Shown here: in pieces, positions 3,022-36,063 of the stretch
Layout of the letters: each line of letters begins with the position of its first letter
Position numbering within the stretch: the stretch's first letter is position 1
DNA from: a virus
Strand: one strand, 5' to 3'
Virus record (IMG/VR): IMGVR_UViG_3300037316_000027
Location: 32,001-96,000 of that record
DNA: 64,000 bases
Translations under genes and position numbers: made by a program
Notes under the pieces: model-generated
Seen by the model: only the letters and a program-made list of their open reading frames with translations
What the model was told of the DNA's origin: nothing
Database searches by the model: none

Positions 3022-3401
3022 TTTGTTTTCACTCTAATGCTGCGCGGGTCGAGCGCGATGATCTCGCGCTTATCTGCCCGCATCAGCGCGTCGTGCCCCA
3101 TCGCCCGGTATTTATCGAGCTGTGCCTTTTCGTATCCAATCCATTCCATCGTATCGTCGTCCAAAATCTTTGGGTTGCGCGGCGCGAACTCCGCCTCAAG
3201 AACGCGGGCTGGCTCCCCGGTTACTTCGGACCGCGTCTTGGCGTAGTTGCGGGCGTCCCCGAGGTTGCTCGTAAAGAACGGGCTATGCGGCACTCCGCTT
3301 GCGCCGGCAGTGCCGTGAAAGACGCGGGTTCTGCCGACACTCTCGACGCCTTGCGAATGCAGGCCCTTCCCGTCGCTCCCGTGGCCCAGTGCGTCCTTCA
3401 T
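3018..3401 (-). CDS. ADP-ribosyltransferase-fold (ART-PolyVal-like) protein with N-terminal MKDALGHGS tag
   Basis: Likely start ATG 3401 (TGATG overlap with the upstream gene). Motifs VFHGT, FFTSNLGDARNYA, VLEAEF..RNP, GHDAL and EIIALDP match the ART-fold pattern seen in phage polyvalent proteins. Confidence 0.65.
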   Translation of the reverse strand: MKDALGHGSDGKGLHSQGVESVGRTRVFHGTAGASGVPHSPFFTSNLGDARNYAKTRSEVTGEPARVLEAEFAPRNPKILDDDTMEWIGYEKAQLDKYRAMGHDALMRADKREIIALDPRSIRVKTK

Positions 3402-20095: not shown

Positions 20096-20099
<4 letters not shown>

Positions 20100-20350
20100 G
20101 TCGGATCACCATCTCCGGCTGAGCCCATGCCACCGCTGCTCGTACTCGTCGTGGTGCTACCAACGGTTTTACGAAGTATCCATTGACGTTCGATGATGCG
20201 CTGAGCGGGATCGACGGCAGGCCGCGTTGCGCCAACAGACGAACCCGCTAGACGCGCGGTACGCTGAGCGACGGAAAGGCCATATGCTTTGATGTACGCA
20301 CCCTGAGCCGTGAGGCTCCAAAATTCTCGGGTCCACGGGTTGTCTACCAT
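20096..20350 (-). CDS. Small protein homologous to the scaffold C-terminus
   Basis: [21 protein letters not shown]...A...A...GS.VGAT aligns with the scaffold end NPWSKEAWNLTNQGKYVKEYG...A...A...GS.LGAT. Confidence 0.75.
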
Positions 20351-20423: not shown

Positions 20424-21281
20424 TCAGGCCGCTGTAGCCTTCGTCGCACCAAGATGCGAACCGACACTCTCGGCCAAGACCTTGGCTTTCTCTTCGCCGT
20501 ACTCCTTGACGTACTTACCTTGATTGGTGAGGTTCCATGCCTCCTTCGACCAAGGATTGTTCGCGCGACCGGCCGGGCCAGAGCCGCCCTTCGAGCCGCC
20601 GCCGACAGAGGCGGGCCACCAATGCGGGGACTTCTCCTGCATGTCCTTGAACCATTCACGCGGGGTCAGGCCCGGGACCGTCCCGAACACGTCCTTGGTG
20701 ATGATGCGACCATCGTCGGTCGCTTCGAACACGCGGTTGCCCTGCAAAACGGCGTCAGAGACAGCCGTGGGCACGAGCTTGGCTTCGATCGCCGCGTCGC
20801 GAATGGCGCGCTCGACGTTGCCGGTGACGATGGATGTCTTGAGGGTGTTGATCTCCCCATCCTTCTCGGCTGCGGCCTTGGTGATCGTATCGAGCTTGCG
20901 CTCGATATTGGTCTTGTCGCGCTCCAGCGGAGCGACGGCCTGCTTGACCCGGGCCGCGATGATCGGCTCCAGCTTGGTCTCGTCGATCGTGCCATCCTTC
21001 TTGATGGCGTCGAGCTGAGCCTTGGTCTCTTCCAGCTCCGTCGCCTGCAAGTGGATCAGCTCGGCATCGAGGCCTTCGAACGGCTTGAGCAGTTCCTTGA
21101 CGGCCTTGTGATCGGCTTTCTCCTTGCGGAGCGCTTCCGACACGCGGTCAACGTCGGCTTGGGTCTTGACGCCTTGCACGCCAGTCAATTCCCATTTGCC
21201 TCCGCGCTCCGTGTAGAGTTCGGCGTAGCCTTCTGGGATTTCCTCGGCCGTGTCGTAAATAGTCTTCAGAGTAACGGGCAT
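20424..21281 (-). CDS. Capsid scaffolding protein
   Basis: Charged coiled-coil, ..IPEGYAELYTE.. N-terminus, PHWWP.S.GGG and NPW..WNLT.QG C-terminus; AAGGAG RBS. Confidence 0.8.
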   Translation of the reverse strand: MPVTLKTIYDTAEEIPEGYAELYTERGGKWELTGVQGVKTQADVDRVSEALRKEKADHKAVKELLKPFEGLDAELIHLQATELEETKAQLDAIKKDGTIDETKLEPIIAARVKQAVAPLERDKTNIERKLDTITKAAAEKDGEINTLKTSIVTGNVERAIRDAAIEAKLVPTAVSDAVLQGNRVFEATDDGRIITKDVFGTVPGLTPREWFKDMQEKSPHWWPASVGGGSKGGSGPAGRANNPWSKEAWNLTNQGKYVKEYGEEKAKVLAESVGSHLGATKATAA

Positions 21282-21319
21282 GGTAACTTCTCCTTGGTAG
21301 AACCTAGGTGGACATCCAC

Positions 21320-21814
21320 TCAGGCACCGCTCATGCGGGATTTTCGTTTCTGGGGTTTCGATGGAAACGCCCAATTCACTAATCCGGGCTGAAATGATCG
21401 CTCAAGATAGAGTGCCCGTAATCGCAATAGTTTAGGACTATCCTTGATGCCCGTACCATTGTTGCACCCATGACAGCACCAACCGCGAAAACGGCCGGTA
21501 GCATGGCAATGATCAAAATGTAGAGTTCGAGTTGAGACCTCACCGCAACACTCACAACTTTCCGGTGGCAAACGCCCGGGGATTTCAATAGGCATCATAT
21601 ATTGCGTAGCAATAGTTATCGCTCGCCTTTCAGGCCGCTGGCGATAAGCCCTCTTAGCCGCCTTAGCTTCTGGAGTTCGTTGTCGGGCAAGCGCCGCCGC
21701 TAGATATTCCGGCGTTCGGCTACGCTCGCGCTTTCGATCGCGCAGACGGGCACGAGAGCGTCTCGCATCCAATGATTGATCAACAAAATGCGAGGCACGT
21801 GTATCACCGGCCAT
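21320..21814 (-). CDS. Endonuclease VII-family (HNH-type) nuclease, probable homing endonuclease
   Basis: CECC...LHFDHCHATGRFRGWCCHGCN motif; basic N-terminus. Confidence 0.8.
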   Translation of the reverse strand: MAGDTRASHFVDQSLDARRSRARLRDRKRERSRTPEYLAAALARQRTPEAKAAKRAYRQRPERRAITIATQYMMPIEIPGRLPPESCECCGEVSTRTLHFDHCHATGRFRGWCCHGCNNGTGIKDSPKLLRLRALYLERSFQPGLVNWAFPSKPQKRKSRMSGA

Positions 21815-22115
21815 AGTTTTTCCTCTTGTGCAACAGTCCTCGGCCTAGGCGGAAGATGTGCTGTCTCGTGATCTCTGTCGCGCCATTGGAGCCGTTCAAT
21901 CGACGGCTTCCGATGACGCGGTGAGCGATATCGGTGTTATCCTCGCCGGCTGTCAGGCCGACGCTGAGCGCGGAGTGGATGCGATTGGCATCATCAGCCG
22001 CGATACTTCGAGCCCATGCAACGAGCGTGTGCCCATGAATTTTCAGTGTTCGCGGTGCCCGGCGATGCCGGTCCCACGCGATGCCGTCGTGCTCGTGCTC
22101 TTCGACATCAGTCAT
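21804..22115 (-). CDS. Truncated MuF-like head morphogenesis protein (~103 aa)
   Basis: GHTL..WA..IAADD..RI..AL..GLTAGE....IA.RVIGS..LNG.NG..EITR resembles the central part of MuF/SPP1 gp7 proteins; the C-terminal MuF core is absent. Confidence 0.55.
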   Translation of the reverse strand: MTDVEEHEHDGIAWDRHRRAPRTLKIHGHTLVAWARSIAADDANRIHSALSVGLTAGEDNTDIAHRVIGSRRLNGSNGATEITRQHIFRLGRGLLHKRKNYGR

Positions 22116-22977
22116 CTTTTCGGCCTTCGTCCTCAACCCACTTCGGGAGCAGGCCCATCTTCTGCGGCGCGTAGACAGTATGCTCGCTGTCCGCAGTCCT
22201 GTTCGAAACTCCATGCGGGCCGTAGTTGACCCACGAATTCTGTCCGCGCGTGCCTGCTGTCATCGCCGGACGCGCAAGGTCCGAATACATCGCAGCGTGA
22301 GAGCGCCAAGCATTCTCTTCGCCGCCAGCCCGGAAGCCATTTCCTTCTTTCATGTGTCCGTTCATGTCATGCACGATCCGGAAGACATCGTTGGCGACGA
22401 CTTTACGGCCGCCGATAACTTCGCCCGTTTTCTTGAGGACGGGGCTGTCCTTTTCGTAGGCCCTCGCCTCGGGGCCGGTGCCGAACCCCTGATCGGTGGG
22501 AAAGCCCCACCAGTGATTATTCTCACTCACATCCTGCGCTCCGAGACGCGGCGACGCGGCATACGGGTCCTTTTGGCCGGGCTTGATCCAATCGACTTTC
22601 AGTCCGGTTGCCTTGATGGCTTCCCACTGCGCTTGCGTCTCCTTGATCATCGCATCGTAACTGGCCTTCGTCGCCGGTTCGGTCGGCGTGTGCTTCATCT
22701 CGTCGAACGCGTCCGCGATGCGCTTGGAACGATCGACATCGACCGGCACGTACTTCTTCGGAGGGTCGTATGGCAGACCCGCCGACTTCATGTAGCTCGC
22801 CGCTGCGTCCTTGAGCCGACCGATCGGTCCGGGAACATACCACTTGCCGCCCAAGTTGATCGGCTTCTGCGGCAGGCCTTCGAGCGGCTTGTGACCGCCA
22901 GCGACCTTGTCCGCCTGCGCCTGCGCAGCGGCCCACTCGCCTTTCTCGTCTCGTGCCTCGTCGGGATTATATGTCAC
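22108..22977 (-). CDS. Polyvalent-protein-type domain (HDxxGH...EENAW..H) with NPDEARDEKGEW leader
   Basis: NDVFRIVHDMNGH...GFRAGGEENAWRSHAAMYS...TRGQNSWVNYGP, recalled from large phage polyvalent proteins. Confidence 0.6.
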   Translation of the reverse strand: MTYNPDEARDEKGEWAAAQAQADKVAGGHKPLEGLPQKPINLGGKWYVPGPIGRLKDAAASYMKSAGLPYDPPKKYVPVDVDRSKRIADAFDEMKHTPTEPATKASYDAMIKETQAQWEAIKATGLKVDWIKPGQKDPYAASPRLGAQDVSENNHWWGFPTDQGFGTGPEARAYEKDSPVLKKTGEVIGGRKVVANDVFRIVHDMNGHMKEGNGFRAGGEENAWRSHAAMYSDLARPAMTAGTRGQNSWVNYGPHGVSNRTADSEHTVYAPQKMGLLPKWVEDEGRKDD

Positions 22978-23395
22978 TGGGCAAGTTATCCCGTAGATGG
23001 CGGAACGCCGCCTTGATGTGGCGCTCCCGGTGTGCAGCGATCTTCTTCGTCAGCTCGTCGCGCGTGAGCATCGCGTCACTGACCTTGGTTCGATTGATCC
23101 CGGCCACATCCATCAGCTCGTTCTCGATCATGTCGCGGATTTGCGGTTCGCTCTGATCGAGGATGTTGATCGCCTCCATGAACGTCTTGATGATGTGCTT
23201 GACGTGCGGGTCGCTCGTCTTGTCGCTCACGTCCTGCGCAGCCTGCTTCAGCGCACCAAACGGCCCATCATTCGATTTGTCCACCAGCTCCGGAAACATA
23301 GCAGCGGCGTTCTTGGCGAAGTCGGCCGCATTGCCGCTCGGAATGTCTCCCGGACCATCCGGGTCCGTGATCTGCGGTGCGTAGGTATCTTTCAC
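22967..23395 (-). CDS. Hypothetical protein (142 aa)
   Basis: Overlapping-coupled ORF in the head operon. Confidence 0.6.
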   Translation of the reverse strand: MKDTYAPQITDPDGPGDIPSGNAADFAKNAAAMFPELVDKSNDGPFGALKQAAQDVSDKTSDPHVKHIIKTFMEAINILDQSEPQIRDMIENELMDVAGINRTKVSDAMLTRDELTKKIAAHRERHIKAAFRHLRDNLPSDI

Positions 23396-24672
23396 AGCTT
23401 CACACCTTTCTCGGTCGCGATCTTTCGCAGCTCGGTGCTGTAGTCAGTGTTGAGACGTTCCGTGTTCCGGCTTCCCAGTTTCGTGTAGAGCCGCTTTTCC
23501 GGATACCACCACGTTGCCTGCATATCGGCGATCGTCATATGATGTCCCGCATCCGCGAGCTTCTGTTGGGCCTGATCGAACACGTCTCGAATGTGCTGGC
23601 GCTGGCTTCCGTTGCCGGGCTGATCCTTGATGCCCCCGACCGCGAGTTCATACCGCTCGGCCGCGTATGTCAATTCCGATTTGGTCTTCGTTCCGGCGTC
23701 GAAGTCCGCGCGGTTGTCCTTAAAATCCTTGATATGGGCCAGACGAATGTCTGCGGCCAGCTTAACCATTCGGGGCTCAGTCGTCGGGATTTTCTGCCCG
23801 GCGGCCTTGAGCGCAGCAGTGAAGCGCGCCTTCGGCTTTTCTACGTCTACCGTCCCAGTCAGCGTGCCCGTGAGACGGCCCCAGCCGCGCATGAGCCACA
23901 TATCGGCGGTGAGAGGTTTGAAGTTTCCATTGAGGTTCTGATAAAATCCCTGTCCGATTTTCGGTCCCAAGATCGCGGAGCCATACATCTTGGCCCCCAT
24001 GTTTTCGCCGCTCACGGGCATGCCCATCTTGTCGAGATCGCCAACGGTGTATTCCTTGTCCAGAAACGCTTGCGCGCCCGCGACGCCCATGGTCCCAATC
24101 AGCTTGTTGAGCTTGTCGAAATTGCCGTTGATGCTGATCCCAGCCTTTCCGGCCTCCATGTCAGTCGGGAATTTCCCGGTCTTCTCAAAAATTCCATATG
24201 CCTTGTCGGCGAGGGCGGTGTTGATCTGCACGGTTTGGTTCTGGCTCGTGACCGCCAGCGCGGCGGTGAAAGCGAACTTCGCCGCCGGGTTGTCGGCCAT
24301 TTCCGGGTGCAGCTTTTCGGCGACGCCCATGGCATCCTTCATGCTGCTCGTGTACCAGTCCTCTGCGTTGCCGCCGCGCTTCAGCTCGTTCTCAATCTCT
24401 GAAGCGATGGCGCTCGAAACGATGTTATCCGCTTTCGCGTTCGGCCCCTCTTTCCCTTTCGGCTCTTCGATCACGCCGCCCGGGATGCCGAGCGCCTTGA
24501 GAGCGGCCTGCCCGCGCGCATTCAGCTCCTTGGCGATGTCCGGGTTGCTGCGCGAGCCCGGTTTCGCCATGGTAGGATCATTCAGGATCGAGTTGACGGT
24601 GAGCTTGTCGTAAGCTCCGCCCGCCGTCCACTCTCCGTGCGCATCGCGCGGCTCGTCAGGATTGAAGGTCAC
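23392..24672 (-). CDS. HhH-GPD DNA glycosylase-like protein with NPDEPRDAHGEW leader
   Basis: WY...ALAVTSQ...GPKIG..FY.NL.G...LTADMW..R...QATWW pattern of the HhH-GPD fold. Confidence 0.6.
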   Translation of the reverse strand: MTFNPDEPRDAHGEWTAGGAYDKLTVNSILNDPTMAKPGSRSNPDIAKELNARGQAALKALGIPGGVIEEPKGKEGPNAKADNIVSSAIASEIENELKRGGNAEDWYTSSMKDAMGVAEKLHPEMADNPAAKFAFTAALAVTSQNQTVQINTALADKAYGIFEKTGKFPTDMEAGKAGISINGNFDKLNKLIGTMGVAGAQAFLDKEYTVGDLDKMGMPVSGENMGAKMYGSAILGPKIGQGFYQNLNGNFKPLTADMWLMRGWGRLTGTLTGTVDVEKPKARFTAALKAAGQKIPTTEPRMVKLAADIRLAHIKDFKDNRADFDAGTKTKSELTYAAERYELAVGGIKDQPGNGSQRQHIRDVFDQAQQKLADAGHHMTIADMQATWWYPEKRLYTKLGSRNTERLNTDYSTELRKIATEKGVKL

Positions 24673-26378
24673 GCGCCGCCCTTCGTCTTGCCCGCTGACG
24701 CGCCCTTCTTGCCGACTTTACGCTTCAGAGGAACAGGTGACCCACGCGTGTAGCCCTTCGCACGTGCGGTCGGCACAATCGGCACGTTCTGATTTGGCGG
24801 TGTAGCGCCTGCGGGGGCGGCCGGTGGGGCGGTCGGGGCTGGTGGTGTAGTGCCGCCGTCGCTCGGTGGCGGACCCGCGACTGCGCTGAGATCAGTATCC
24901 AAGAAAGTATCATCGGTGACAGACTGCCCAAAGGGGCCGACCATGGTCCCGAGCATCGACGCCGCTTCTTCCTCGATCTGATTGTTCTCTTCTTCAAAGT
25001 CCATCTCCGTCATGTCGTTCATCTGCATCATGCGATGCATCGAACGGAGTGACAAGGGCAGTCCGAGCTGCTTGGCCTGCATGAACGCGAGCAGCGCGGC
25101 ACCAGCGACAGTCTGATCGGCGAAGTCCGTGGTCGGCTTGACCGATACTTCATCGGGGTCTTCCCCGACCCACTCCGCGCAATACTTAAGCGCGGTCTCC
25201 AGTCCCTTGCCGGCGCACTGGGCGACGGATGAAATCGTGGTCGTGCGAGCCGCGACGCGAATACGGAGGGCTTCGCCGCTCTCACCGCGCGCGTTGCCGA
25301 CATCCAAGAAGGCCACACCGAGCGAAGCGGCTTCGTCCTGATCGCTCTTGAGCGACTGACGCATCTCGCCAAGACCGGCGGCGGAGACGCCGATGTATTT
25401 CGCATCGCCATCGATACGCAGATCGATGACGCCCTTGTTGCCGACGCGGAGTTTATCCGGCGCGGCTTCATCGACGTTGCCACCGATGATGACGAGCGTG
25501 TTCTGTCCTTGCAGGTAAAGCGTTTGCCGGTAGTCGGCCTCGCCCCGGTAGATAGCCAGAGCGAGGTTCGACAGGCCAAGAAGTGGGGACACTTCCGGTT
25601 CGGGTACGAGATCGTTTGCGCCGATGAAGACGAACGGGATGTCGTCGAGTGCGCGACCGCCGATCGACGGGAAAATAAAATCTTCCATGATGGGCATGGA
25701 GCTGTCATTGACTTTCACGGCGACAGCGTAGGGCGATCCCTCCGGCGGGCGCTCCCAGCCGCTCTCAAGGCTCTCGGGACCGCCGCGCGTGAGCACGCGA
25801 TACTTGCGTTCGGTCTTCCACGTAAAGCCCTCGCGGCGAAAACCGCTCTCGTCCAGCACGACGAGATCGAGCATGTTGCGGCCCTCGTTAAGGCGTCCCG
25901 CGTCCCAGTTGATGATCCGCATCGGCTCGTAGAATGACAGGTACGGGGTCGCCTTGTCGATATCGACGCCCTGCGGTGCGTCCGCAAGCAGCCCGCAGCG
26001 CCCATACAGGAGTTGCGCGACGTTGATCCGGCGAAGCAACATCTGGAGCCCCTCGCCTTGGATTGTCGCCTTATCCATCATGGTCTGAAGACGCGGAGGC
26101 AGCGTGATCACGGCGGGCTTGTTATGCATTATTCCAACCATTGCCTTCACGGCATCCTTGACAACGTCGTGGAAGTAGGCGCGCATCAAGTACGCTTCGT
26201 AGTCGCGCCAGCCGGGAGAGCTTGGGGTCGTCATTCCATCCTGCACCATGCCCTCGGTCGCCGGGAGGTAGTCGAGACGCTTCGACTTGACGGCGCGCTC
26301 GCCTTGATAGGTGTCCGAGAGCTGGAGCCATTCGCCCAGTCTTTCTACGTACTCGGGATGCTTGTCTGGCAATGCCAT
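24669..26378 (-). CDS. Portal protein (DUF4055-like)
   Basis: HPEY...YLP...Y..YL.RA.F...IINW...IPFVFIG...ESGEALRIR; directly after terL. Confidence 0.9.
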   Translation of the reverse strand: MALPDKHPEYVERLGEWLQLSDTYQGERAVKSKRLDYLPATEGMVQDGMTTPSSPGWRDYEAYLMRAYFHDVVKDAVKAMVGIMHNKPAVITLPPRLQTMMDKATIQGEGLQMLLRRINVAQLLYGRCGLLADAPQGVDIDKATPYLSFYEPMRIINWDAGRLNEGRNMLDLVVLDESGFRREGFTWKTERKYRVLTRGGPESLESGWERPPEGSPYAVAVKVNDSSMPIMEDFIFPSIGGRALDDIPFVFIGANDLVPEPEVSPLLGLSNLALAIYRGEADYRQTLYLQGQNTLVIIGGNVDEAAPDKLRVGNKGVIDLRIDGDAKYIGVSAAGLGEMRQSLKSDQDEAASLGVAFLDVGNARGESGEALRIRVAARTTTISSVAQCAGKGLETALKYCAEWVGEDPDEVSVKPTTDFADQTVAGAALLAFMQAKQLGLPLSLRSMHRMMQMNDMTEMDFEEENNQIEEEAASMLGTMVGPFGQSVTDDTFLDTDLSAVAGPPPSDGGTTPPAPTAPPAAPAGATPPNQNVPIVPTARAKGYTRGSPVPLKRKVGKKGASAGKTKGGA

Positions 26379-26449: not shown

Positions 26450-28072
26450 TTACGCGCCTGCTCGCCCGGACTTCATGCCCGGGGAGCTGTCAAAGCGCAG
26501 CATGTACCGCGTCTCGTCTCCAGCGTGGTCTTCGCTGTCATCGTCTACATCATCGATCTTGACTTCGTCGCGCGGCAGCACCGGCACGCATCGAAGCCAT
26601 TGCTGGCATTCCGTCGTGACGAACAGGCCGGGGATTTCCCGGAAGCCGTCCGGCGGCCGTTTGGCCGCCTTGAGCCGCTTGCGGATTTGCTCCCAGCCCT
26701 GCTCGCGCGAACCGGGGCCTTTGTCGGCCCTCTCCCAGAAAACGCCACGGTATTTCACGCCGTTGATCGTGACCGGCTTCTCGAAGTCGTCCGCGATGGA
26801 AACTGTCGATGAGGACTGATCGCCATCGAAAATCGAACTGTCCGCCGGTCCTCGGCTCACCCGGGTCCACGTACCTTGAGGATCACGTAGGCCCCATTTG
26901 ATTTCGCGTTCAATGATGCCCTTCGCGATATCGGCGACGAGCAGCCGCGAGCCTTCGTTCGGTTGTCCGCGCCAGCCGTACCATTCGTGGATACGGAAGA
27001 GATCGCCGCGCACTGTCGCCCGCATTCTACCGGGGACGATCTGCCCCTGTGAGTTCTTCGTGTCGCGCAATTTCAAATCGGTCCCGTCGCTCCGTGCGTA
27101 CCAGCCGACCGAGAACGGCTTCGACGAGCCATGGTCATAGGCCCGATAAATCTTCCAGCCCGGCGGCACGTCGAACGGCTCGATCACGACCGCGTCCCGG
27201 TACTCGTACCAGATGTCGTCGAACATGCCGCCGGCAACGATGTCCCACGAGCCCTCCATCCACGCCGCGAGTTCGGACTTGTTGCGGGCTGACGCTTTAA
27301 TTTTGTTCTTGTACTCCGGGTCCGAGTGCAACAGCAGCACGTTCTCGTCGAGATAGCCGTGAATGGCGCGGCGCGGCGGCTCCTTGTTACCTGCTTCGTC
27401 TACGGTGCCCGTAATGAGTGGGCCGACTGTCGGCTTGCGCCCGTTGATCGTCTCGCCGTTGATCGGCAATCGCCAGCGGGCCTTGACCCAGTTATGGCCG
27501 ACGCCGTAGGGATTGGTCGTTGCGCGCACCTTGCGCGGCATTCCCCTGATCGTCGAACGCGAGCACGAGAACATGCTCATGTAGCAATCCGGGCTCGGCC
27601 AGTTCGTCAACTCTTCCCAACCAATCCACGGATAGGCGTGACCGTGGTAGTTATCGTAATCGCTGCGCACGTTGAAGTGGGCGAAGTACAGGCGCTCGCC
27701 TGTCGGCCACTCCCACATCGTCTTGACTTCATTGTAGACCGCGTTAGGCCAGATACGCTTGATCCACTTCTTGGACTTCTCAATGATGTCGCGCAACTGC
27801 GGATGCGATTGTCGAAACAAGACGCCTTTCCATTCTGCACCATAGCCTTTGCCGACATCCTGACAAAAGTCCATGATCAGCGCGTCGGTCTTGCCGGGGC
27901 CGCGTGTTCCTTCGTAGAGAACTTCCATTGTCGGATCGGCGAGGAAAAACTCCTGTGACCCCGGTTGCGGGCACCATATCGCAGCTTTTAACACCCCTCT
28001 ATCGTCACGAAAATACGGGACGTAAGCCCCATCCTTGTCCTGCACGAATTTTTCGACACTGGGCCACTGCAT
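26450..28072 (-). CDS. terL: Terminase large subunit
   Basis: Walker A GTRGPGKT, Walker B WIGWEEL, ATTNP, nuclease DHG...EDHAGDETRY. Confidence 0.95.
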   Translation of the reverse strand: MQWPSVEKFVQDKDGAYVPYFRDDRGVLKAAIWCPQPGSQEFFLADPTMEVLYEGTRGPGKTDALIMDFCQDVGKGYGAEWKGVLFRQSHPQLRDIIEKSKKWIKRIWPNAVYNEVKTMWEWPTGERLYFAHFNVRSDYDNYHGHAYPWIGWEELTNWPSPDCYMSMFSCSRSTIRGMPRKVRATTNPYGVGHNWVKARWRLPINGETINGRKPTVGPLITGTVDEAGNKEPPRRAIHGYLDENVLLLHSDPEYKNKIKASARNKSELAAWMEGSWDIVAGGMFDDIWYEYRDAVVIEPFDVPPGWKIYRAYDHGSSKPFSVGWYARSDGTDLKLRDTKNSQGQIVPGRMRATVRGDLFRIHEWYGWRGQPNEGSRLLVADIAKGIIEREIKWGLRDPQGTWTRVSRGPADSSIFDGDQSSSTVSIADDFEKPVTINGVKYRGVFWERADKGPGSREQGWEQIRKRLKAAKRPPDGFREIPGLFVTTECQQWLRCVPVLPRDEVKIDDVDDDSEDHAGDETRYMLRFDSSPGMKSGRAGA

Positions 28073-28073
28073 T

Positions 28074-28946
28074 TTAAGCGGCGTCCCCAGTGTCGTCCTC
28101 AGTACCCTCAACGCTGTCATCGAACGTGACGGCTGGCCGACCTTCGCGACGATAGGCACTTTCAAGTTCGTTGAGCGCTTCCGACGTGGCCGCGCGCATC
28201 CCGACGACAAGCACGCCGCCCGTGACGTTCATATCAACGATCGCCCGCTTGCCATATTCTTTCGGCTTGCGGTTTTCGAGATACCACCTGAGCATGTCGG
28301 GGTCTTGTTTGAAAATCGTCTCGGGGACTGGAGCACCGTTCTCGTCGCGAAGCCATAGCCTCGGGTTTCTGTCGTCAATGGGGTCGCCGAGCAGAACGAA
28401 CAGATCATACTTGTCTGGGTCGATTTTATATTGGACGCGCCCCCTGAAAGATTGTACCTCGAAGAAGCCCGTAGCCAGTGCCCACGAAGCCGTCTCCGCT
28501 TTCCCGAGGCCTTCATCCACCGCTGCGTCCCATGCGAGATGAAACCGCTGGGTGTTGTCAGAGTTCTCATTCTCTTCATCGTCGGGAAGAGCTACGTCGA
28601 AACCGTCCCCGGGAGCGCCCTCCTTGGATTTCTGTAGCCAGTATTTGAGTTGGGAGAGGCTGATGCCCGCGCGCTGCGCCGCGTCCGACGCATGGGGAAT
28701 TTCAGCGACGTTCTTGAGCAGACGATTGAGGCGTTCGGGAGTGTTCTTTCGCGGGGCGCGAGGGCCACGGACATCTAGGGGCGAAGGCCCAGACCCGTTT
28801 ACCGGATAGCTGCGGGATCGCTCTAGGACGCCCCGGCTTGCTGCGCCCATGGGACGAGACTTCGGCGGGGCTTTATCGATTAGCACTTCGGGGCCGACCG
28901 GAGCCGGGCCGAGCAAATCGTCGAGACTGGTTTCTTCTCCGCTCAT
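28074..28946 (-). CDS. terS: Terminase small subunit
   Basis: HTH (AAQRAGISLSQLKYW), DPDMLRWYLENRKPKEYG; immediately upstream of terL. Confidence 0.75.
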   Translation of the reverse strand: MSGEETSLDDLLGPAPVGPEVLIDKAPPKSRPMGAASRGVLERSRSYPVNGSGPSPLDVRGPRAPRKNTPERLNRLLKNVAEIPHASDAAQRAGISLSQLKYWLQKSKEGAPGDGFDVALPDDEENENSDNTQRFHLAWDAAVDEGLGKAETASWALATGFFEVQSFRGRVQYKIDPDKYDLFVLLGDPIDDRNPRLWLRDENGAPVPETIFKQDPDMLRWYLENRKPKEYGKRAIVDMNVTGGVLVVGMRAATSEALNELESAYRREGRPAVTFDDSVEGTEDDTGDAA

Positions 28947-31691: not shown

Positions 31692-32150
31692 TTACTTCCC
31701 CTTGAGTTTCATATAGACGACATCGGGTCCGCCCGCTGTCCAATTCTTTTCGCGATGATCTTCAACGAACCCGTGCTTCGCGTAAATCTGCGGAAGCCCG
31801 ACATCGAACGCGTCGAGGGTTTTCCCGCCGGCCGCTTTCGCCGCTTCGATAGCCGCGCCGCCTGCGCCCTTTTCGCCTGAATTGTTGAACACGCTCTGCA
31901 CGTCACCTTCGGGAGAGACGGCGGAGCCGACCTTGCCGTCGTTGCGAAGGATCAGCGTGTGATGGTCGAGTTCGCTCGGGTCGGCGTGAGGCGTGAACAT
32001 GCCGACGCGCGAAGACTGATTGCGCGCAGCCAAGAACTCAGCAGGGGCGGCGCGGCGAAAGCCATTGGGCAGGCCGATGTTGTTGATGCCCGTCGCGTGC
32101 GCGGGGCCGCCGCGCGGGTTCGATCCGTGTCCGCCTGCATCCTTGGGCAT
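31692..32150 (-). CDS. GNAT-fold acetyltransferase-like protein with KDAGGHGS tag
   Basis: SVFNNSGEKGAGGAAIEAAK..GG.TLDAFD..LP..YAKHGF matches GNAT motifs A/B. Confidence 0.7.
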   Translation of the reverse strand: MPKDAGGHGSNPRGGPAHATGINNIGLPNGFRRAAPAEFLAARNQSSRVGMFTPHADPSELDHHTLILRNDGKVGSAVSPEGDVQSVFNNSGEKGAGGAAIEAAKAAGGKTLDAFDVGLPQIYAKHGFVEDHREKNWTAGGPDVVYMKLKGK

Positions 32151-32521
32151 TACGAGTTACTCCATTTGGCATCGCATGCGCACTGGGGCCAGAGATGCCA
32201 TGCACGCGGTACGGTGTGCCCGACATGGTGATGGCGTAGGCGTGCGTGCGGGACCGGAACGTAAGAGGGCATCACCGCCTGCGGATACGCGAACGCGGCG
32301 ACCTTGGTCTCGGGGAACGGCGCGGGCTTTCGTTCGATGACCCTATCGACGAACGTTTCGACTTTCGTTTCGACGGTCTTCACGATCACCTTCGGTCGAA
32401 AGACCAACCGCTCAACGGTCTTCGTCTGAGCTGGCGCGGCGACAGGCTTATCCTGCTCATGGAAAAAGACGAGGGTCACGACGGCAGCTAGCACAATGAT
32501 CGATGGGATGGTGATGTTCAT
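32150..32521 (-). CDS. Membrane-anchored hypothetical protein
   Basis: N-terminal hydrophobic helix; coupled overlaps. Confidence 0.5.
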   Translation of the reverse strand: MNITIPSIIVLAAVVTLVFFHEQDKPVAAPAQTKTVERLVFRPKVIVKTVETKVETFVDRVIERKPAPFPETKVAAFAYPQAVMPSYVPVPHARLRHHHVGHTVPRAWHLWPQCACDAKWSNS

Positions 32522-32981
32522 CCGAGTGGCCTTTCTGATGGCAGCACAATTCGCTTCTGCGCCCGCGTGCGTCGATCGGCCGATGCCATGTTGCGGATGG
32601 CTGCGTTCGGTGCCGAGATGTTCGACGGAGCGCCAAGCTTCGGGATCACGTCCATCCGCGAGGCGTTAATGCTTTTTGGTTGTTCGATCTGATCTGTCAT
32701 TTTGCTCTCCGCATAGCGTCGATTTGGGCAACAGTTTCTCTGACTGCATGCATCTCGCCATCGACGCGAAGAACCGCTTTCGTGCCCGGAGTGTTCGCAC
32801 GGTCCTCGTCGAAGGTTTCAGCGCGGGTGTTTTCATTCTTTCATTATCGACTTCGGCTTATCCACGACAAACTCGTCAAGGGCCTTATCGAGCGCGGAGC
32901 CGATCGGCAGAAGCGCGTGCGGGCACTCTTGGAGCCTTTCCTTGTCGTCATACCGGCGTTTGCATTTCGGGCAAGTGATGA

Positions 32982-33212
32982 TCATGATCCGTATCCTCGG
33001 TCCCATTCCTGTGCGAGTTGCCCCGCGTTAGGGGCGAGCTTATCCGCGTGCGGGTTGTCCGCCGGTCGTCCAAGGCGCTTGGCCTCTCGACCCTTGTGGA
33101 ACGCGATCTCCAGCGGCGACATCGTAGGCGTCGGCGTGAAGTCCGCATGCGGGACGGCGATCGTCACTCCGACCGAATGCGTAGGTTTCGAAACTCGTTG
33201 CATCGGTGCCAT
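32982..33212 (-). CDS. Small protein, Rmf/CrpP-like motif
   Basis: AF..GR.A...G....NP......W.RGY pattern. Confidence 0.4.
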   Translation of the reverse strand: MAPMQRVSKPTHSVGVTIAVPHADFTPTPTMSPLEIAFHKGREAKRLGRPADNPHADKLAPNAGQLAQEWDRGYGS

Positions 33213-33496
33213 TAGCTTGCTGCCTGATATCCGCGCTGTTTCGCCATCGTCTGAATGTTGTCGGCCAGAACCGGCGTGGTATCGTAGCCGCCCACGCTGT
33301 CGTGCACTGGGACCGGGTCCGACTTCGGCCCGCTGTAGAGTTCGCTGGCCGCGTCAGTGTTCTGCGTTGACGTGGCGAAACCGCGCACGCCCGGAATAGA
33401 CCCCGAGGTCCCTCGGACCCCGGGAGCAGTCACGAAGCCGCGTGCGCCCTCGTCCGCGAGATCATTCGTCCCCGATGTGCCACGTTCGTTTTTCAT
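33212..33496 (-). CDS. Small protein with PKS-box
   Basis: AASELYSGPKSDPVPVHDS; internal PGVRG duplication. Confidence 0.65.
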   Translation of the reverse strand: MKNERGTSGTNDLADEGARGFVTAPGVRGTSGSIPGVRGFATSTQNTDAASELYSGPKSDPVPVHDSVGGYDTTPVLADNIQTMAKQRGYQAAS

Positions 33497-33996
33497 CGCC
33501 CACTCAGAAGTCGGTGGATCATCTTCGCTTCGCGCCCGCCGATGCGTCGTCCGCTACGGTTCGAGCTGTTGATCGCGTTCTGCACCGCGCCCGCGTGATA
33601 GTTGGGGTTCGATCGCGACCAGCCATTCTTCGCATTGTAACTCGCCTGATCGGTTGCGCTCCAGTGAGAAGGGGCCGGACCCGCGCCCGGGTATGTATCC
33701 TGTACCATGCTGTCGTGCACCGGGACTGTGTCCGACTTCGGCGTACCACTGTGAAGCTGATCAGCGGGCGCATCCGACTTGCCGCCCCGGGCGCGATAGC
33801 CCATGACGGTTGCCGCGTCCGCGACTTGATCAGCGTATTTGCTGATGCCTCTCTGATCGCCCATCTCCTGCGCGTTGCGCCCGGCCTCGGCGGCGTCCTT
33901 CGCGATGAAGCGAAGCTCGTCGTTGGTCTTCGTGTGCATCGGCGAGCCCGAGATCGGCTTCGCATTGCTTCCGTGGCCTTTTGCGTCTTTTGCCAT
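33493..33996 (-). CDS. KDAKGHGS-tagged protein with PKS-box
   Basis: MAKDAKGHGSN; LHSGTPKSDTVPVHDSM. Confidence 0.75.
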   Translation of the reverse strand: MAKDAKGHGSNAKPISGSPMHTKTNDELRFIAKDAAEAGRNAQEMGDQRGISKYADQVADAATVMGYRARGGKSDAPADQLHSGTPKSDTVPVHDSMVQDTYPGAGPAPSHWSATDQASYNAKNGWSRSNPNYHAGAVQNAINSSNRSGRRIGGREAKMIHRLLSGR

Positions 33997-34000
33997 CTGT

Positions 34001-34270
34001 TTACTCTTCCGTGTTGGGTCGAGACGGGTTCATGCTCTTGAGCATGTTATAAATCCCGCTCTTGATGCCGGCGGCATCGGTCATTCCGGCGTGAACCGGC
34101 ACTGAGTTCGACTTCGGACCGCCGCTCGAAAGTGTGCTCGCCGCTGCTTGATCAGATGCCCCATAGAACTTGGCACGATCAGCTACGGATAGAAATTGCC
34201 GAGCGCGAGCGTATGGTATCTTCAGCGCGCCGCCGTTACCGTTACTGCCGTGTCCTTTGGCGTCTTTCAT
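34001..34270 (-). CDS. KDAKGHGS-tagged protein with PKS-box
   Basis: MKDAKGHGSN; AASTLSSGGPKSNSVPVHAGM. Confidence 0.75.
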   Translation of the reverse strand: MKDAKGHGSNGNGGALKIPYARARQFLSVADRAKFYGASDQAAASTLSSGGPKSNSVPVHAGMTDAAGIKSGIYNMLKSMNPSRPNTEE

Positions 34271-34341
34271 TTTAGAAAAATCCTCTCAAGAGCGCACAGA
34301 CCGCGCCGCTGATGATGATGATGGCGAAAACGTCGGCCACC

Positions 34342-34758
34342 TTAGTAGCTCACGCGGGCGAGAGACGCTGCTCGTCGGGCAGTGTGATCGGGCTGAGCGC
34401 CTACGTCACCACTCCAGCCGTGTTTGGCCTGATATGCGTCGGACAGGTTTTTGCCATAGTCTCCCTTGGTCGAGACGCCGTTGCTATCGCGGTCACCCCA
34501 ATCCTGTCCGTGACCGCCCGCCATGCTGTCGTGCACCGGCACCGGGTCCGATTTCGGGCCGCCGCTTGAGAGCGTGCTCGCCGCTTCTCGATCGCCGCCC
34601 GGAGTGTTGCTCCATGCATCCTGTCCGGCGATCGGCGTACCTTGACTGACAACTCGGCTGAGCACGCCCAGCGGATGGTTTGGATTGGTGCGCGCCGCCG
34701 CGAGCCGCGCCATCGCGCCGCTGCGCCCGTTGCTACCGTGGCCTTGTGCGTCTTTCAT
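34342..34758 (-). CDS. KDAQGHGS-tagged protein with PKS-box
   Basis: MKDAQGHGSN; AASTLSSGGPKSDPVPVHDSM. Confidence 0.75.
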   Translation of the reverse strand: MKDAQGHGSNGRSGAMARLAAARTNPNHPLGVLSRVVSQGTPIAGQDAWSNTPGGDREAASTLSSGGPKSDPVPVHDSMAGGHGQDWGDRDSNGVSTKGDYGKNLSDAYQAKHGWSGDVGAQPDHTARRAASLARVSY

Positions 34759-34931
34759 GTGCCTGCTCCAAGTGCTGACCCGATGCCGTAGCCCAGAGTT
34801 GAGCCGACTTCGAGTTTGTTCTGCCCGGTGCCGACCATCGCGGGATGGATCGGTGCCTCGTGAGACTTTCCGCCACCGAGCGCGACCGCGACCTTCACGT
34901 CCTGATCGGTCACTGCCGGCGCTCGTTTCAT
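34755..34931 (-). CDS. Small protein with PKS-box variant
   Basis: ATGA-coupled; AVALGGGKSHEAPIHPAM. Confidence 0.55.
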   Translation of the reverse strand: MKRAPAVTDQDVKVAVALGGGKSHEAPIHPAMVGTGQNKLEVGSTLGYGIGSALGAGT

Positions 34932-35248
34932 TTCTGTCCTCGCCACGCTGCCGAAGCCAGTCTCTCGCCTTGACTTTGTCCGCGCGTTACGACGCCGCTG
35001 ATCCGATCACCGAGACCTGTGGGCGCTCGCCCCGTGGTCGGGTTCGAAGCCCGACCGGCCATCGCATCGTGCACGGGGGCTTGCGTAGACTTCAGCGTGC
35101 TCATGAGCGACTGCGCTGCTTGCGCGTTCGAAGTCGTGTCGCGCAACAGCGTCGGGCGCGGGCCGCCGAACATCCGCGCGTCTTCTCCCATCCGTTGACG
35201 GAGAAAAGCACCAGTGCTGCCGCTACCGTGTCCAAGTGCATCTTTCAT
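34928..35248 (-). CDS. KDALGHGS-tagged protein with PKS-box variant
   Basis: MKDALGHGS; AAQSLMSTLKSTQAPVHDAM. Confidence 0.75.
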   Translation of the reverse strand: MKDALGHGSGSTGAFLRQRMGEDARMFGGPRPTLLRDTTSNAQAAQSLMSTLKSTQAPVHDAMAGRASNPTTGRAPTGLGDRISGVVTRGQSQGERLASAAWRGQK

Positions 35249-35256
35249 TAGACTGT

Positions 35257-35643
35257 TTATCCTTTGATCCGTCCGTTGGGGCCTTCGCTTCGTTCGCTGG
35301 GACGAAGGGTCTTATAGCGGAAAGATTTGTCGTTCCCCAAGCCGGGGTTCAAATCAGCCCCGCTAACTTTCGCGGCTCGGCGCTGCACGGCGGGATCGCC
35401 GTGATCAGATTTGAACCGATAATCGCCGCCGGTCGCAGCAGCGACGAAGAAGTCACGCCGAAAACCGGGGTTCGTGGTCGCGAGCTTGTCAGCCATTGCG
35501 TGGACTTCGTCCGGTTTCGCGCCTCTCGCCTTCAAGTCGGAGGCGATTGCTTCGAAATGCCGACGCTGCAACTGCGGGGTTGCCTTCACGCCTTGCGAGT
35601 GGATGCCACTGCCGGCCGAACCGTGTCCAAGTGCGTCTTTCAT
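35257..35643 (-). CDS. KDALGHGS-tagged protein
   Basis: MKDALGHGSAGSGIHSQGV, then a RRHFEAIA...LATTNPGFRRDFF domain. Confidence 0.75.
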   Translation of the reverse strand: MKDALGHGSAGSGIHSQGVKATPQLQRRHFEAIASDLKARGAKPDEVHAMADKLATTNPGFRRDFFVAAATGGDYRFKSDHGDPAVQRRAAKVSGADLNPGLGNDKSFRYKTLRPSERSEGPNGRIKG

Positions 35644-35658
35644 GGGGGAGCCCCTTCC

Positions 35659-36063
35659 TCAGTAGTCTTCGCCGGACATGCCGACCTTGTGATACTTGAC
35701 TTGAACCCGATCGGGGCTCTTCGGGGCCACGCTGTAGCCCCGGCGATTGTCCTGTAGTTCGCGCGCTACGTCGCGCCAATTCTCGCGCTTGGCATACGCT
35801 TCATCGACCCGAGACTTTTCGCCAGCGCTCAGGCCTTCCGGCTTTTGACTGCCGGACCAAAGCCCGAGCAAGTCTTGAACGCCGCCCGTAAATCGCTCCG
35901 CTGGCATCGTCGCGTGATAGACCGCGTCCGACATGCCGCCAAACACTCCGCCGCCCTTCGCAGGGAGCGCGTTGACAGCGGCAGCATGTGTCGCTACCGG
36001 CGCAGCCGCCGGAGCAGCCGCACCGCCGCGATCTTCCGAACCGTGGCCGAGTGCGTCCTTCAT
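35659..36063 (-). CDS. KDALGHGS-tagged protein
   Basis: MKDALGHGSEDRGG; GAGG RBS. Confidence 0.75.
   Translation of the reverse strand: MKDALGHGSEDRGGAAAPAAAPVATHAAAVNALPAKGGGVFGGMSDAVYHATMPAERFTGGVQDLLGLWSGSQKPEGLSAGEKSRVDEAYAKRENWRDVARELQDNRRGYSVAPKSPDRVQVKYHKVGMSGEDY

Follow-up and report, generated by a model that had tools for sequence, protein, structure and literature searches.

Leaders of unrelated head-region enzymes in a phage are probably the single-copy form of a motif that heads the modules of giant polyvalent proteins

Proteins injected by phages include the internal proteins and Alt of T4, the Dar proteins of P1, the N4 RNA polymerase and MuF-fused toxins, and to our knowledge the choice and loading of such cargo are understood for only a few model phages. 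In encapsulins, cargo-loading peptides consist of a short conserved peptide, usually C-terminal, which is joined by a flexible linker to an enzyme that is held in an HK97-fold shell. Passages of PMC5512222 propose that polyvalent proteins are delivered and processed into units. According to part of PMC9024508, the N-terminal 30 residues of P1 DarB, an antirestriction protein of the polyvalent type, are enough to bring a reporter into the capsid, and a section of a preprint (bioRxiv 10.64898/2026.04.10.717836) reports that phi24B gp47, a polyvalent protein, was found in virions by proteomics. Here we describe a stretch of 64,000 nucleotides (the window; bases 32001-96000 of the virus contig IMGVR_UViG_3300037316_000027, which has 126,820 base pairs (bp) and is rated complete) in which two unrelated enzyme-like genes, gpA and gpC, lie among the head genes and begin with the same kind of short leader. 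We are highly confident that these leaders are the single-copy, N-terminal form of a motif that heads protein modules, and that the clade of the window phage encodes such modules as separate genes. For the whole statement, in which the motif also has a role in loading these modules, sequence comparisons leave us evenly divided.

The initial annotation of this DNA had placed a MuF-like open reading frame (ORF) of ~103 amino acids (aa) and two unrelated leader proteins in the MuF slot between the portal and scaffold genes, and the ORFs and their flanks agree with this arrangement (Table 1). When gpA and gpC were compared by BLASTP, they were alike over residues 1-20 only (13/20 identical, E 2e-5), all other segments having E >= 0.37. 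The pattern [RK][DN]xxGx[WF] occurs 5 times in the open frames of at least 80 aa of the whole 126,820-bp genome, and among these occurrences the full leader context, with a start codon 8 codons upstream, is confined to gpA and gpC. Among the 120 gpC homologues listed of 487 found, 101 carry [RK][DNGE]xxGx[WF] within the first 30 residues, almost always in the form M-x-[FY]-[ND]-P-x-[EQ]-x-R-[DN]-x-x-G-x-[WF] starting at residue 1, and the leader is likewise present in 26 of 29 close homologues of gpA. The linker that follows varies in both length and sequence up to the conserved core, which in gpC starts KPLEGLPQKP. Across the stand-alone proteins the R, D, G and W/F positions are invariant at the N-terminus, and the adjoining linker drifts.

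Structural models place the leader apart from the enzymes that carry it. In AlphaFold2 models made from 50- and 60-row alignments (mean predicted local distance difference test (pLDDT) 89.8 for gpC and 92.0 for gpA), residues 1-20 have pLDDT values of 46-57 in gpA and 56-71 in gpC and form no secondary structure; the leader is thus predicted to be disordered and to lie outside both folds. With a variable linker in between, the models give no sign that it is an integral part of either folded domain, an outcome that would have refuted the initial annotation. Conserved in homologues beside a variable linker, it is a genuine, selected and modular N-terminal element on unrelated enzymes of a head-gene slot. 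Two other interpretations of this region were rejected, namely Asn-Pro self-cleavage at the leader, since neither the N nor the P position is conserved, and a frameshift fusion of portal and gpA, because the relatives have a stop 1-5 codons ahead of the leader start.

A search for the motif and its position in phage proteins, which had been suggested along with the initial annotation, revealed a far wider distribution. A leader profile of 34 columns, made from 30 leaders and searched against 1.84 billion representative proteins, matches 3032 protein clusters at E <= 1e-3, of which 521 remain at E <= 1e-10, with copies that are both N-terminal and internal. The best 150 of the 3032 clusters are mostly proteins of 1000-3800 aa with 3-10 matched stretches each. 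In these 150 proteins the strict core R[DN]xxGx[WF] was found 691 times, each time preceded by 10 or more residues, at a median spacing of 238 residues. The consensus of the 691 occurrences is K-[YF]-[SDN]-P-[DNS]-Q-P-R-D-[ED]-x-G-R-W-T-[SD]-G-G-G, a motif of ~16 residues in which the aromatic position (W 82%, F 18%) stands directly ahead of the linker and positions +9 to +12 are Gly-rich; a somewhat looser form of it reads K-[YF]-[SDN]-P-[DNS]-[QE]-P-R-D-[ED]-x-G-[RK]-[WF]-T-x-G-G-G. Pfam families detected in 81 motif-rich proteins comprise ADPrib_exo_Tox, ART-PolyVal, Zeta_toxin, Phage_Mu_F, GNAT, Acb1 and Portal_Mu, as well as topoisomerase IB (Topoisom_I), histidine phosphatase, Tpt1 and LigT/2H, each family having at most 6 members per set, and the motif itself is not represented by any model of Pfam or NCBIfam.

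The same picture emerges at the level of individual loci. A DNA pattern for N-P-x-[EQ]-P-R-D-x-x-G-x-W was found in at least 120 IMG/VR stretches, for which a rough estimate of the chance expectation is a handful of matches. Of 90 motif matches in 80 loci, 26 are no more than 20 residues away from the first start codon, 58 lie inside the ORF and 6 could not be placed, and at least 100 residues follow the motif in 71 of 74 uncut ORFs. A Pfam scan of 20 motif ORFs left 8 without a family match. The motif follows MuF in L104, L117, L138 and L144, a portal in L111 and L143 and an S78 protease in L129, and it precedes an ADP-ribosyltransferase or NUDIX domain in L087, L096, L097 and L144. Among cultured phages, for which short-query tblastn is insensitive (13, 1 and 2 records), two proteins labelled 'capsid maturation protease', a label that rests on annotation only, begin with the motif: gp10 of Mycobacterium phage Damien (L083 5001-5774) with MSFNPRQPRDRFGRW and a protein of Nocardia phage P3.1 (L204 5989-6699) with MARRKFNPRQPRDLRGRW. 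In Streptomyces phage Gilgamesh, gp48 (L206 2979-16853; 4624 aa) has the motif KWNPALHPRDSKGRF at residues ~31-45, and its gene directly follows that of a 'portal and MuF-like fusion protein'. Beyond the window, the motif stands ahead of each globular module of giant head-associated polyvalent proteins, and between MuF, portal or protease and effector domains.

This distribution changes how the leader is to be understood. It had been read as a second targeting leader of this phage and as kin to the M(x)KDAxGHGS tag. Instead, it is the solo form of a motif that occurs in 3032 clusters and is repeated 4-10 times in giant proteins, and apart from the letters [RK]DxxG nothing supports its kinship with the tag. 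The tag heads 9 ORFs of the window (3375-3398 and 32121-36060 (-)) and 69 small ORFs in close relatives (L004-L032), was found in 0 of the 150 motif-rich giant proteins, and is a separate tag that is restricted to the phage clade. That the genome has just two copies of the leader would suit a resemblance by chance, or a 5' gene end that was duplicated recently and locally in one phage; however, dozens of relatives carry the leader, on unrelated cargo as well as on orthologues, and 3032 clusters contain it, which refutes this idea, and we assign it next to no probability.

An IMG/VR scan with a gpC alignment confirmed 574 loci, of which 80 were examined. In ~25 of the 80, the gene order is TerL, portal, variable genes, gpB, gpC, variable genes, mini-MuF and scaffold, where gpB and mini-MuF denote the two small genes that flank gpC in the window. 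In the window phage and these ~25 syntenic relatives, the modules are separate, translationally coupled genes between portal and scaffold; in the window, the GTG start of gpA overlaps the portal stop (GTGA), and the start codon of gpC is GTG as well. The variable cargo genes encode 297-1044 aa, every extracted one starts with the leader, and most are without a Pfam family, while some match DUF7178 or, weakly, ART-PolyVal. gpA follows the portal in the window phage, L014 and L015 and follows gpC in L003. gpC is constant in the clade; other cargo such as gpA varies between phages and slots.

That the cargo downstream of the leader differs between syntenic phages, and that gpA stands in different slots, is what cassette exchange would produce. 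The leader could then be a recombination junction at the DNA level, a homology patch for swapping cargo cassettes that has no function in the protein. Its nucleotides argue otherwise: synonymous positions are free (in 44 distinct leader DNAs, 5 codons are used for the invariant Arg and all 4 for the invariant Gly), only 34 of 48 nucleotides are identical between the leaders of gpA and gpC, and the x positions vary. A purely DNA-level role is thereby largely refuted and seems to us very improbable; the codon variety and the limited nucleotide identity indicate that selection acts on the peptide, not on the DNA.

Modules also occur joined in one ORF. In L034 (1683-3380; 566 aa) and L036 (9089-10783; 565 aa) a leader, a weak ART-PolyVal-like region and the gpC core form a single ORF, so that one leader serves two domains. 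In P0068, a gpC homologue, the gpC core is followed by the motif and then by a P-loop domain, and long ORFs of L026, L028, L029 and L054 each contain 2-3 internal copies of the motif with Gly-rich stretches after them. By tblastn, the cores of both gpA and gpC were found inside one protein of 3209 aa (MW202722.1) together with ART-PolyVal and LPD22, and the gpC core also inside a 'large polyvalent protein' of 2772 aa (OL906435.1) together with LPD38. These matches identify the modules of the window as homologues of those of polyvalent proteins, here encoded among virion genes.

What might such a motif do? We suggest that the unit of motif, flexible tether and domain could serve as an address tag for each module. 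The motif would dock each module at a repeating site inside the assembling head, the docked enzymes would be packaged and then injected with the DNA, and the motif might also be a cut point between fused modules. Its analogues would be the capsid targeting sequence of T4, the signal by which the N-terminus of P1 DarB directs packaging, and the encapsulin cargo-loading peptides. A role in loading is favoured by selection on the motif at the free N-terminus of stand-alone enzymes, by its restriction to proteins that are encoded among, or fused to, head genes (portal, MuF, protease), by the T4 and P1 DarB precedents and by the detection of phi24B gp47 in virions.

Several observations weigh against loading. 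Virion targeting of the motif proteins is a step that we infer. Just 2 of 73 distant gpA homologues have the leader in their first 30 residues, and several of the distant homologues carry variants such as KHPRDxxGxW further inside the protein. The motif is kept across phages with differing portal, MuF and capsid families, which is difficult to reconcile with a plain docking peptide, except where the structure of the receptor site is universal. It also persists in portal and MuF fusions in which the cargo is already tethered, so a processing or hinge role fits at least as well as docking. The giants MW202722.1 and OL906435.1, with their gpA- or gpC-like modules, contain no copy of the motif, and such modules are therefore deployable without it; as the P1 Dar proteins have no motif either, the P1 precedent is one of concept only. 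Prediction of complexes of the leader with portal residues 1-480, the gpC core and mini-MuF (score 0.01, mark 0.32) speaks neither for nor against binding. The broader proposal, that [FY]-x-P-x-[EQ]-x-R-D-x-x-G-x-[WF] with a Gly-rich tether is a general and portable address label of tailed phages, by which any domain behind it would be loaded, perhaps released by cleavage, and injected, is one that we put forward only tentatively. If it holds, the 3032 or more carrier clusters would be a catalogue of injected effectors and anti-defence enzymes, and the window clade would represent the simplest form, with one tag per gene.

That the motif is conserved in phages whose hosts and head-gene families differ widely, from actinobacteriophages to soil and jumbo contigs, points to a universal partner. 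The motif might act after injection by binding a conserved host factor, or during ejection as a handle that guides the unfolded module through the portal and tail channel, and loading would then not require it; one copy per module would suit a repeated handle on a threading polypeptide. However, no candidate partner has emerged and no resemblance to any host-factor-binding motif can be named, and annotated head maturation proteases, whose place of action is the prohead and not the host, also carry the motif. We consider an action in ejection or in the host quite improbable.

If instead the motif is a site of cleavage, the nature of gpC becomes relevant. Across 50 aligned homologues of gpC, residues H203, D204, E220, N222, A223, W224, R225 and H227 are invariant and H208 is nearly so (>= 90%), so that the HDxxGH and EENAW..H residues noticed in the initial annotation are indeed those that are conserved. 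The alignment suggests an enzyme-like domain with an invariant His/Asp/His/Glu/His site. Its sole family match in Pfam, PHROGs and NCBIfam is a weak one to phrog_3170, and no peptidase family of Pfam matches it. Foldseek found nothing in the PDB at E <= 0.001, the best match being tryptophan hydroxylase (E 0.33, TM 0.17); HDxxGH resembles the HELLGH iron site of the aromatic amino-acid hydroxylases, but this match is too weak to use. A wide VIA-align search gave a best Z of 2.8, a profile search of PDB sequences gave nothing meaningful, and an ESM Atlas search gave only viral clusters without names. Weak zincin-like rows of the VIA-align search were abylysin (Z 2.6), YbeY (Z 2.5), jannalysin (Z 2.1) and BlaR1 (Z 2.0). 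The HDMNGH of gpC has His-Asp, 4 residues between its histidines, and E220; the zincin pattern is HExxH or HExxxH with a downstream Glu. Together with these rows the spacing recalls the 'HEXXXH' peptidases that are mentioned among polyvalent proteins in passages of PMC5512222, as a lead only.

We rank a pure processing site as the main rival to a loading tag. Under this explanation, a peptidase of phage or host cuts polyvalent proteins at the motif, and the N-terminal copies are propeptides or relics of gene fission with no part in targeting. The placement of the motif, once per module and ahead of a Gly-rich flexible stretch, fits well, as this is the usual look of a protease-accessible junction, and the residue immediately ahead of the linker is aromatic. 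The motif also occurs in or beside annotated head maturation proteases, Iyer et al. proposed, in the passages mentioned, that polyvalent proteins are processed into units (PMC5512222), and in the window clade the usual position of a prohead protease is taken by gpC, which has a His/Asp/Glu site. On the other hand, the invariance of R/D/G/W-F in stand-alone proteins beside a drifting linker is hard to explain by purposeless trimming of 8-15 residues. The fold of gpC is not recognisable as that of a peptidase, and gpC was rejected as a general peptidase for the motif because its core is present in just 2 of the 150 motif-rich giants (the gpA core is present in 6). Nor does the complete genome offer an evident candidate, as it has no match to S78, S78_2, S14 (ClpP) or S49 and only a sub-threshold match to S77 (11.8 bits) at genome positions 118504-118680, far from the head genes; head maturation in the window phage may do without a canonical protease or may rely on one that escapes recognition. 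On balance, we regard processing without targeting as unlikely. Even if the motif were only a cleavage site, it would still explain how polyvalent proteins are cut into working units, as was proposed in 2017, and we know of no cutting site for that process.

The other leader protein, gpA, yielded a clearer relationship. HhH-GPD proteins such as Nth, Ogg, MutY and AlkA share an all-helical fold of two lobes and are defined by a Gly-rich helix-hairpin-helix with a conserved Asp ~20 residues later. In a wide VIA-align search with the gpA model, ranks 1-22 all belong to the HhH-GPD superfamily (Z 9.8-6.2, 168-223 residues aligned, root-mean-square deviation (rmsd) 4.0-4.7), although Z below ~13 can be non-specific for helical proteins. 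The top match is Tm1821 Ogg (Z 9.8, rmsd 4.2, 193 aligned), and the others include NTHL1 (Z 8.6), a DUF2419 queuine salvage protein (Z 8.5), MagIII (Z 8.1), AGOG (Z 7.8), EndoIII (Z 7.6) and the glycinyltransferase PaMx11 gp46 (Z 7.2), with MutY and AlkA also in the list. The hairpin LGPKIGQGF (235-243) is followed by D257 17 residues later, a spacing in keeping with the definition, and K238, I239, G240, G242, F243, T255, D257, W259 and R262 are invariant in 60 sequences. We therefore accept a predicted HhH-GPD-like fold for gpA, in line with the glycosylase-like domain named in the initial annotation, and D257 is probably the catalytic Asp. Thus, gpA is like Ogg, Nth, MagIII, AGOG, MutY and AlkA in its fold and in its Gly-rich hairpin and Asp, and it is unlike the superfamily in lacking a sequence-profile or Foldseek match: there is no Pfam, PHROG or NCBIfam match and no HhH-GPD family among Pfam at E <= 0.1, Foldseek against the PDB gave no match at E <= 0.001, and a profile search of PDB sequences gave just an unrelated one (E 0.024). 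The fold does not narrow down the substrate, because non-glycosylases, namely the DUF2419 and PaMx11 gp46 proteins, are among the matches.

Table 1. Head-gene features of the window, in the order in which they are read; positions are those of the window.
Feature	Position	Strand	Details
Large terminase (TerL)	26450-28210	(-)	
Portal	24669-26378	(-)	upstream boundary of the cargo slot; phrog_145 E 1.3e-105; PF13264 E 4.8e-19
gpA leader	24628-24672	(-)	MTFNPDEPRDAHGEW; 15 codons, GTG start
gpA	23392-24672	(-)	426 aa; leader, short Gly linker, predicted all-helical HhH-GPD-like enzyme domain
gpB	22967-23395	(-)	142 aa; without leader; no family match
gpC leader	22933-22977	(-)	MTYNPDEARDEKGEW; 15 codons, GTG start
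gpC	22108-22977	(-)	289 aa; leader, variable linker, predicted alpha/beta domain, invariant HDxxGH...EENAWRSH site
Mini-MuF	21804-22115	(-)	103 aa; phrog_241 E 4.5e-10; phrog_3517 E 2.2e-4
Endonuclease VII / HNH-type gene	21320-21814	(-)	PF02945 E 7.5e-13; phrog_2633 E 2.1e-14
Head scaffolding protein	20424-21374	(-)	downstream boundary of the slot; phrog_206 E 7.6e-40

The head genes all lie on the minus strand of the window, in the order TerL, portal, gpA, gpB, gpC, mini-MuF, endonuclease VII and scaffold, which adds two slot genes, gpB (142 aa) and the endonuclease VII gene, to those that had been listed at first. Searches of Pfam, PHROGs and NCBIfam gave no family for gpB, of which the C-terminal ~80 aa are conserved beside gpC in the ~25 syntenic loci, mostly ahead of gpC but behind it in L024, L025, L030 and L032. 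A role for gpB as adaptor or chaperone in the cargo system is conceivable.

The ORF of mini-MuF encodes 103 aa from an internal ATG and 136 aa from the first ATG. Its match to phrog_241, 'head morphogenesis', covers only profile positions 139-199 of 679, neither Pfam PF04233 (Phage_Mu_F) nor NCBIfam TIGR01641 matches it, and a genome-wide PF04233 search was empty at this place. In 16 aligned relatives the protein has ~100 aa with the core ...GL.AG.DNTDIAHRVIGS...NG.NG.TE.TRQ.I..LG, the invariant positions being G..A..I..G..A..V.G..G..G.TE.TR..LG. Judging from this partial homology and from its place between the portal and scaffold genes, mini-MuF corresponds to the N-terminal helical part of the MuF/gp7 head-morphogenesis domain, with no match over the whole domain. 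The initial annotation had taken it for a truncated MuF fragment; a protein of stable length that is conserved in the ~25 syntenic relatives is not a recent truncation. A split MuF was considered as well, as the PF04233 search of the genome gave one match (15.4 bits; window 34527-34730 (-), profile positions 47-111), which, if real, would be the missing C-terminal half. This match was judged spurious because it lies in an Arg-rich alternative frame that overlaps a gene with the KDAxGHGS tag.

The endonuclease VII gene is likely to be a mobile, homing-type insertion, because it is missing at the junction of mini-MuF and scaffold in the ~25 syntenic relatives; similar genes are found elsewhere in L018 and L034. 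The scaffold gene of these relatives comes after mini-MuF, in most of them immediately and in a few with a gap between the two. As a separate observation, an ORF of 84 aa after the scaffold gene (window 20096-20350 (-)) resembles the C-terminus of the scaffold; it recurs in relatives, often with a second copy further downstream.

The motif is thus a candidate for a general signal of loading or processing. A motif shared in this way could be used to search phage genomes for injected effectors and anti-defence proteins, and it might serve as a tag by which proteins of choice are brought into phage heads. With one N-terminal copy per cargo gene, the window clade is a convenient case for its study, and Damien and P3.1 are cultured carriers that are handy for wet tests.

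Comparison with described systems shows both likenesses and differences. The capsid targeting signal of T4 is removed by the prohead protease, whereas the window phage is without a recognisable one. The encapsulin peptides have the same layout as the phage motif, with a different sequence and usually at the C- rather than the N-terminus. In polymorphic toxins, the boundary motifs VENN of CdiA and DPxGL of Rhs mark the border between the constant delivery part and the variable toxin; these occur once per protein, before the C-terminal toxin, whereas the phage motif stands before every module and on stand-alone genes. As a short N-terminal peptide on unrelated proteins of the head region, the leader of gpA and gpC resembles the T4/P1 type. 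Like it, the T4 sequence is a short N-terminal peptide common to unrelated proteins, in that case head-internal and injected (Mullaney and Black 1996, cited in a part of PMC9024508). Unlike it, the motif of the window is also internal and present in many copies, and the likeness to T4 is one of layout. For P1, the likeness is likewise conceptual and not one of sequence, as DarB, DarA, DdrA, DdrB, Hdf and Ulx are all without the motif.

The closest relatives in kind are the polyvalent effectors and those fused to MuF or portal (PMC5512222; PMC5576092), with which the slot of the window shares modules and a location among head genes, and the motif-rich proteins a typical effector set and MuF or portal domains. 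A polyvalent protein in the sense of Iyer et al. combines 2-15 effector domains in one polypeptide, whereas gpA and gpC each have an ORF to themselves, complete with start and stop codons. The delimiter motif does not occur in the portions of the text of PMC5512222 and PMC5576092 that were searched, the supplementary alignments of PMC5512222 lying outside this search, and neither the motif nor the unbundled layout with one tag per gene was found in the literature searched. In kind, the system is already known from injected effectors that are polyvalent or linked to MuF and from N-terminal capsid targeting signals.

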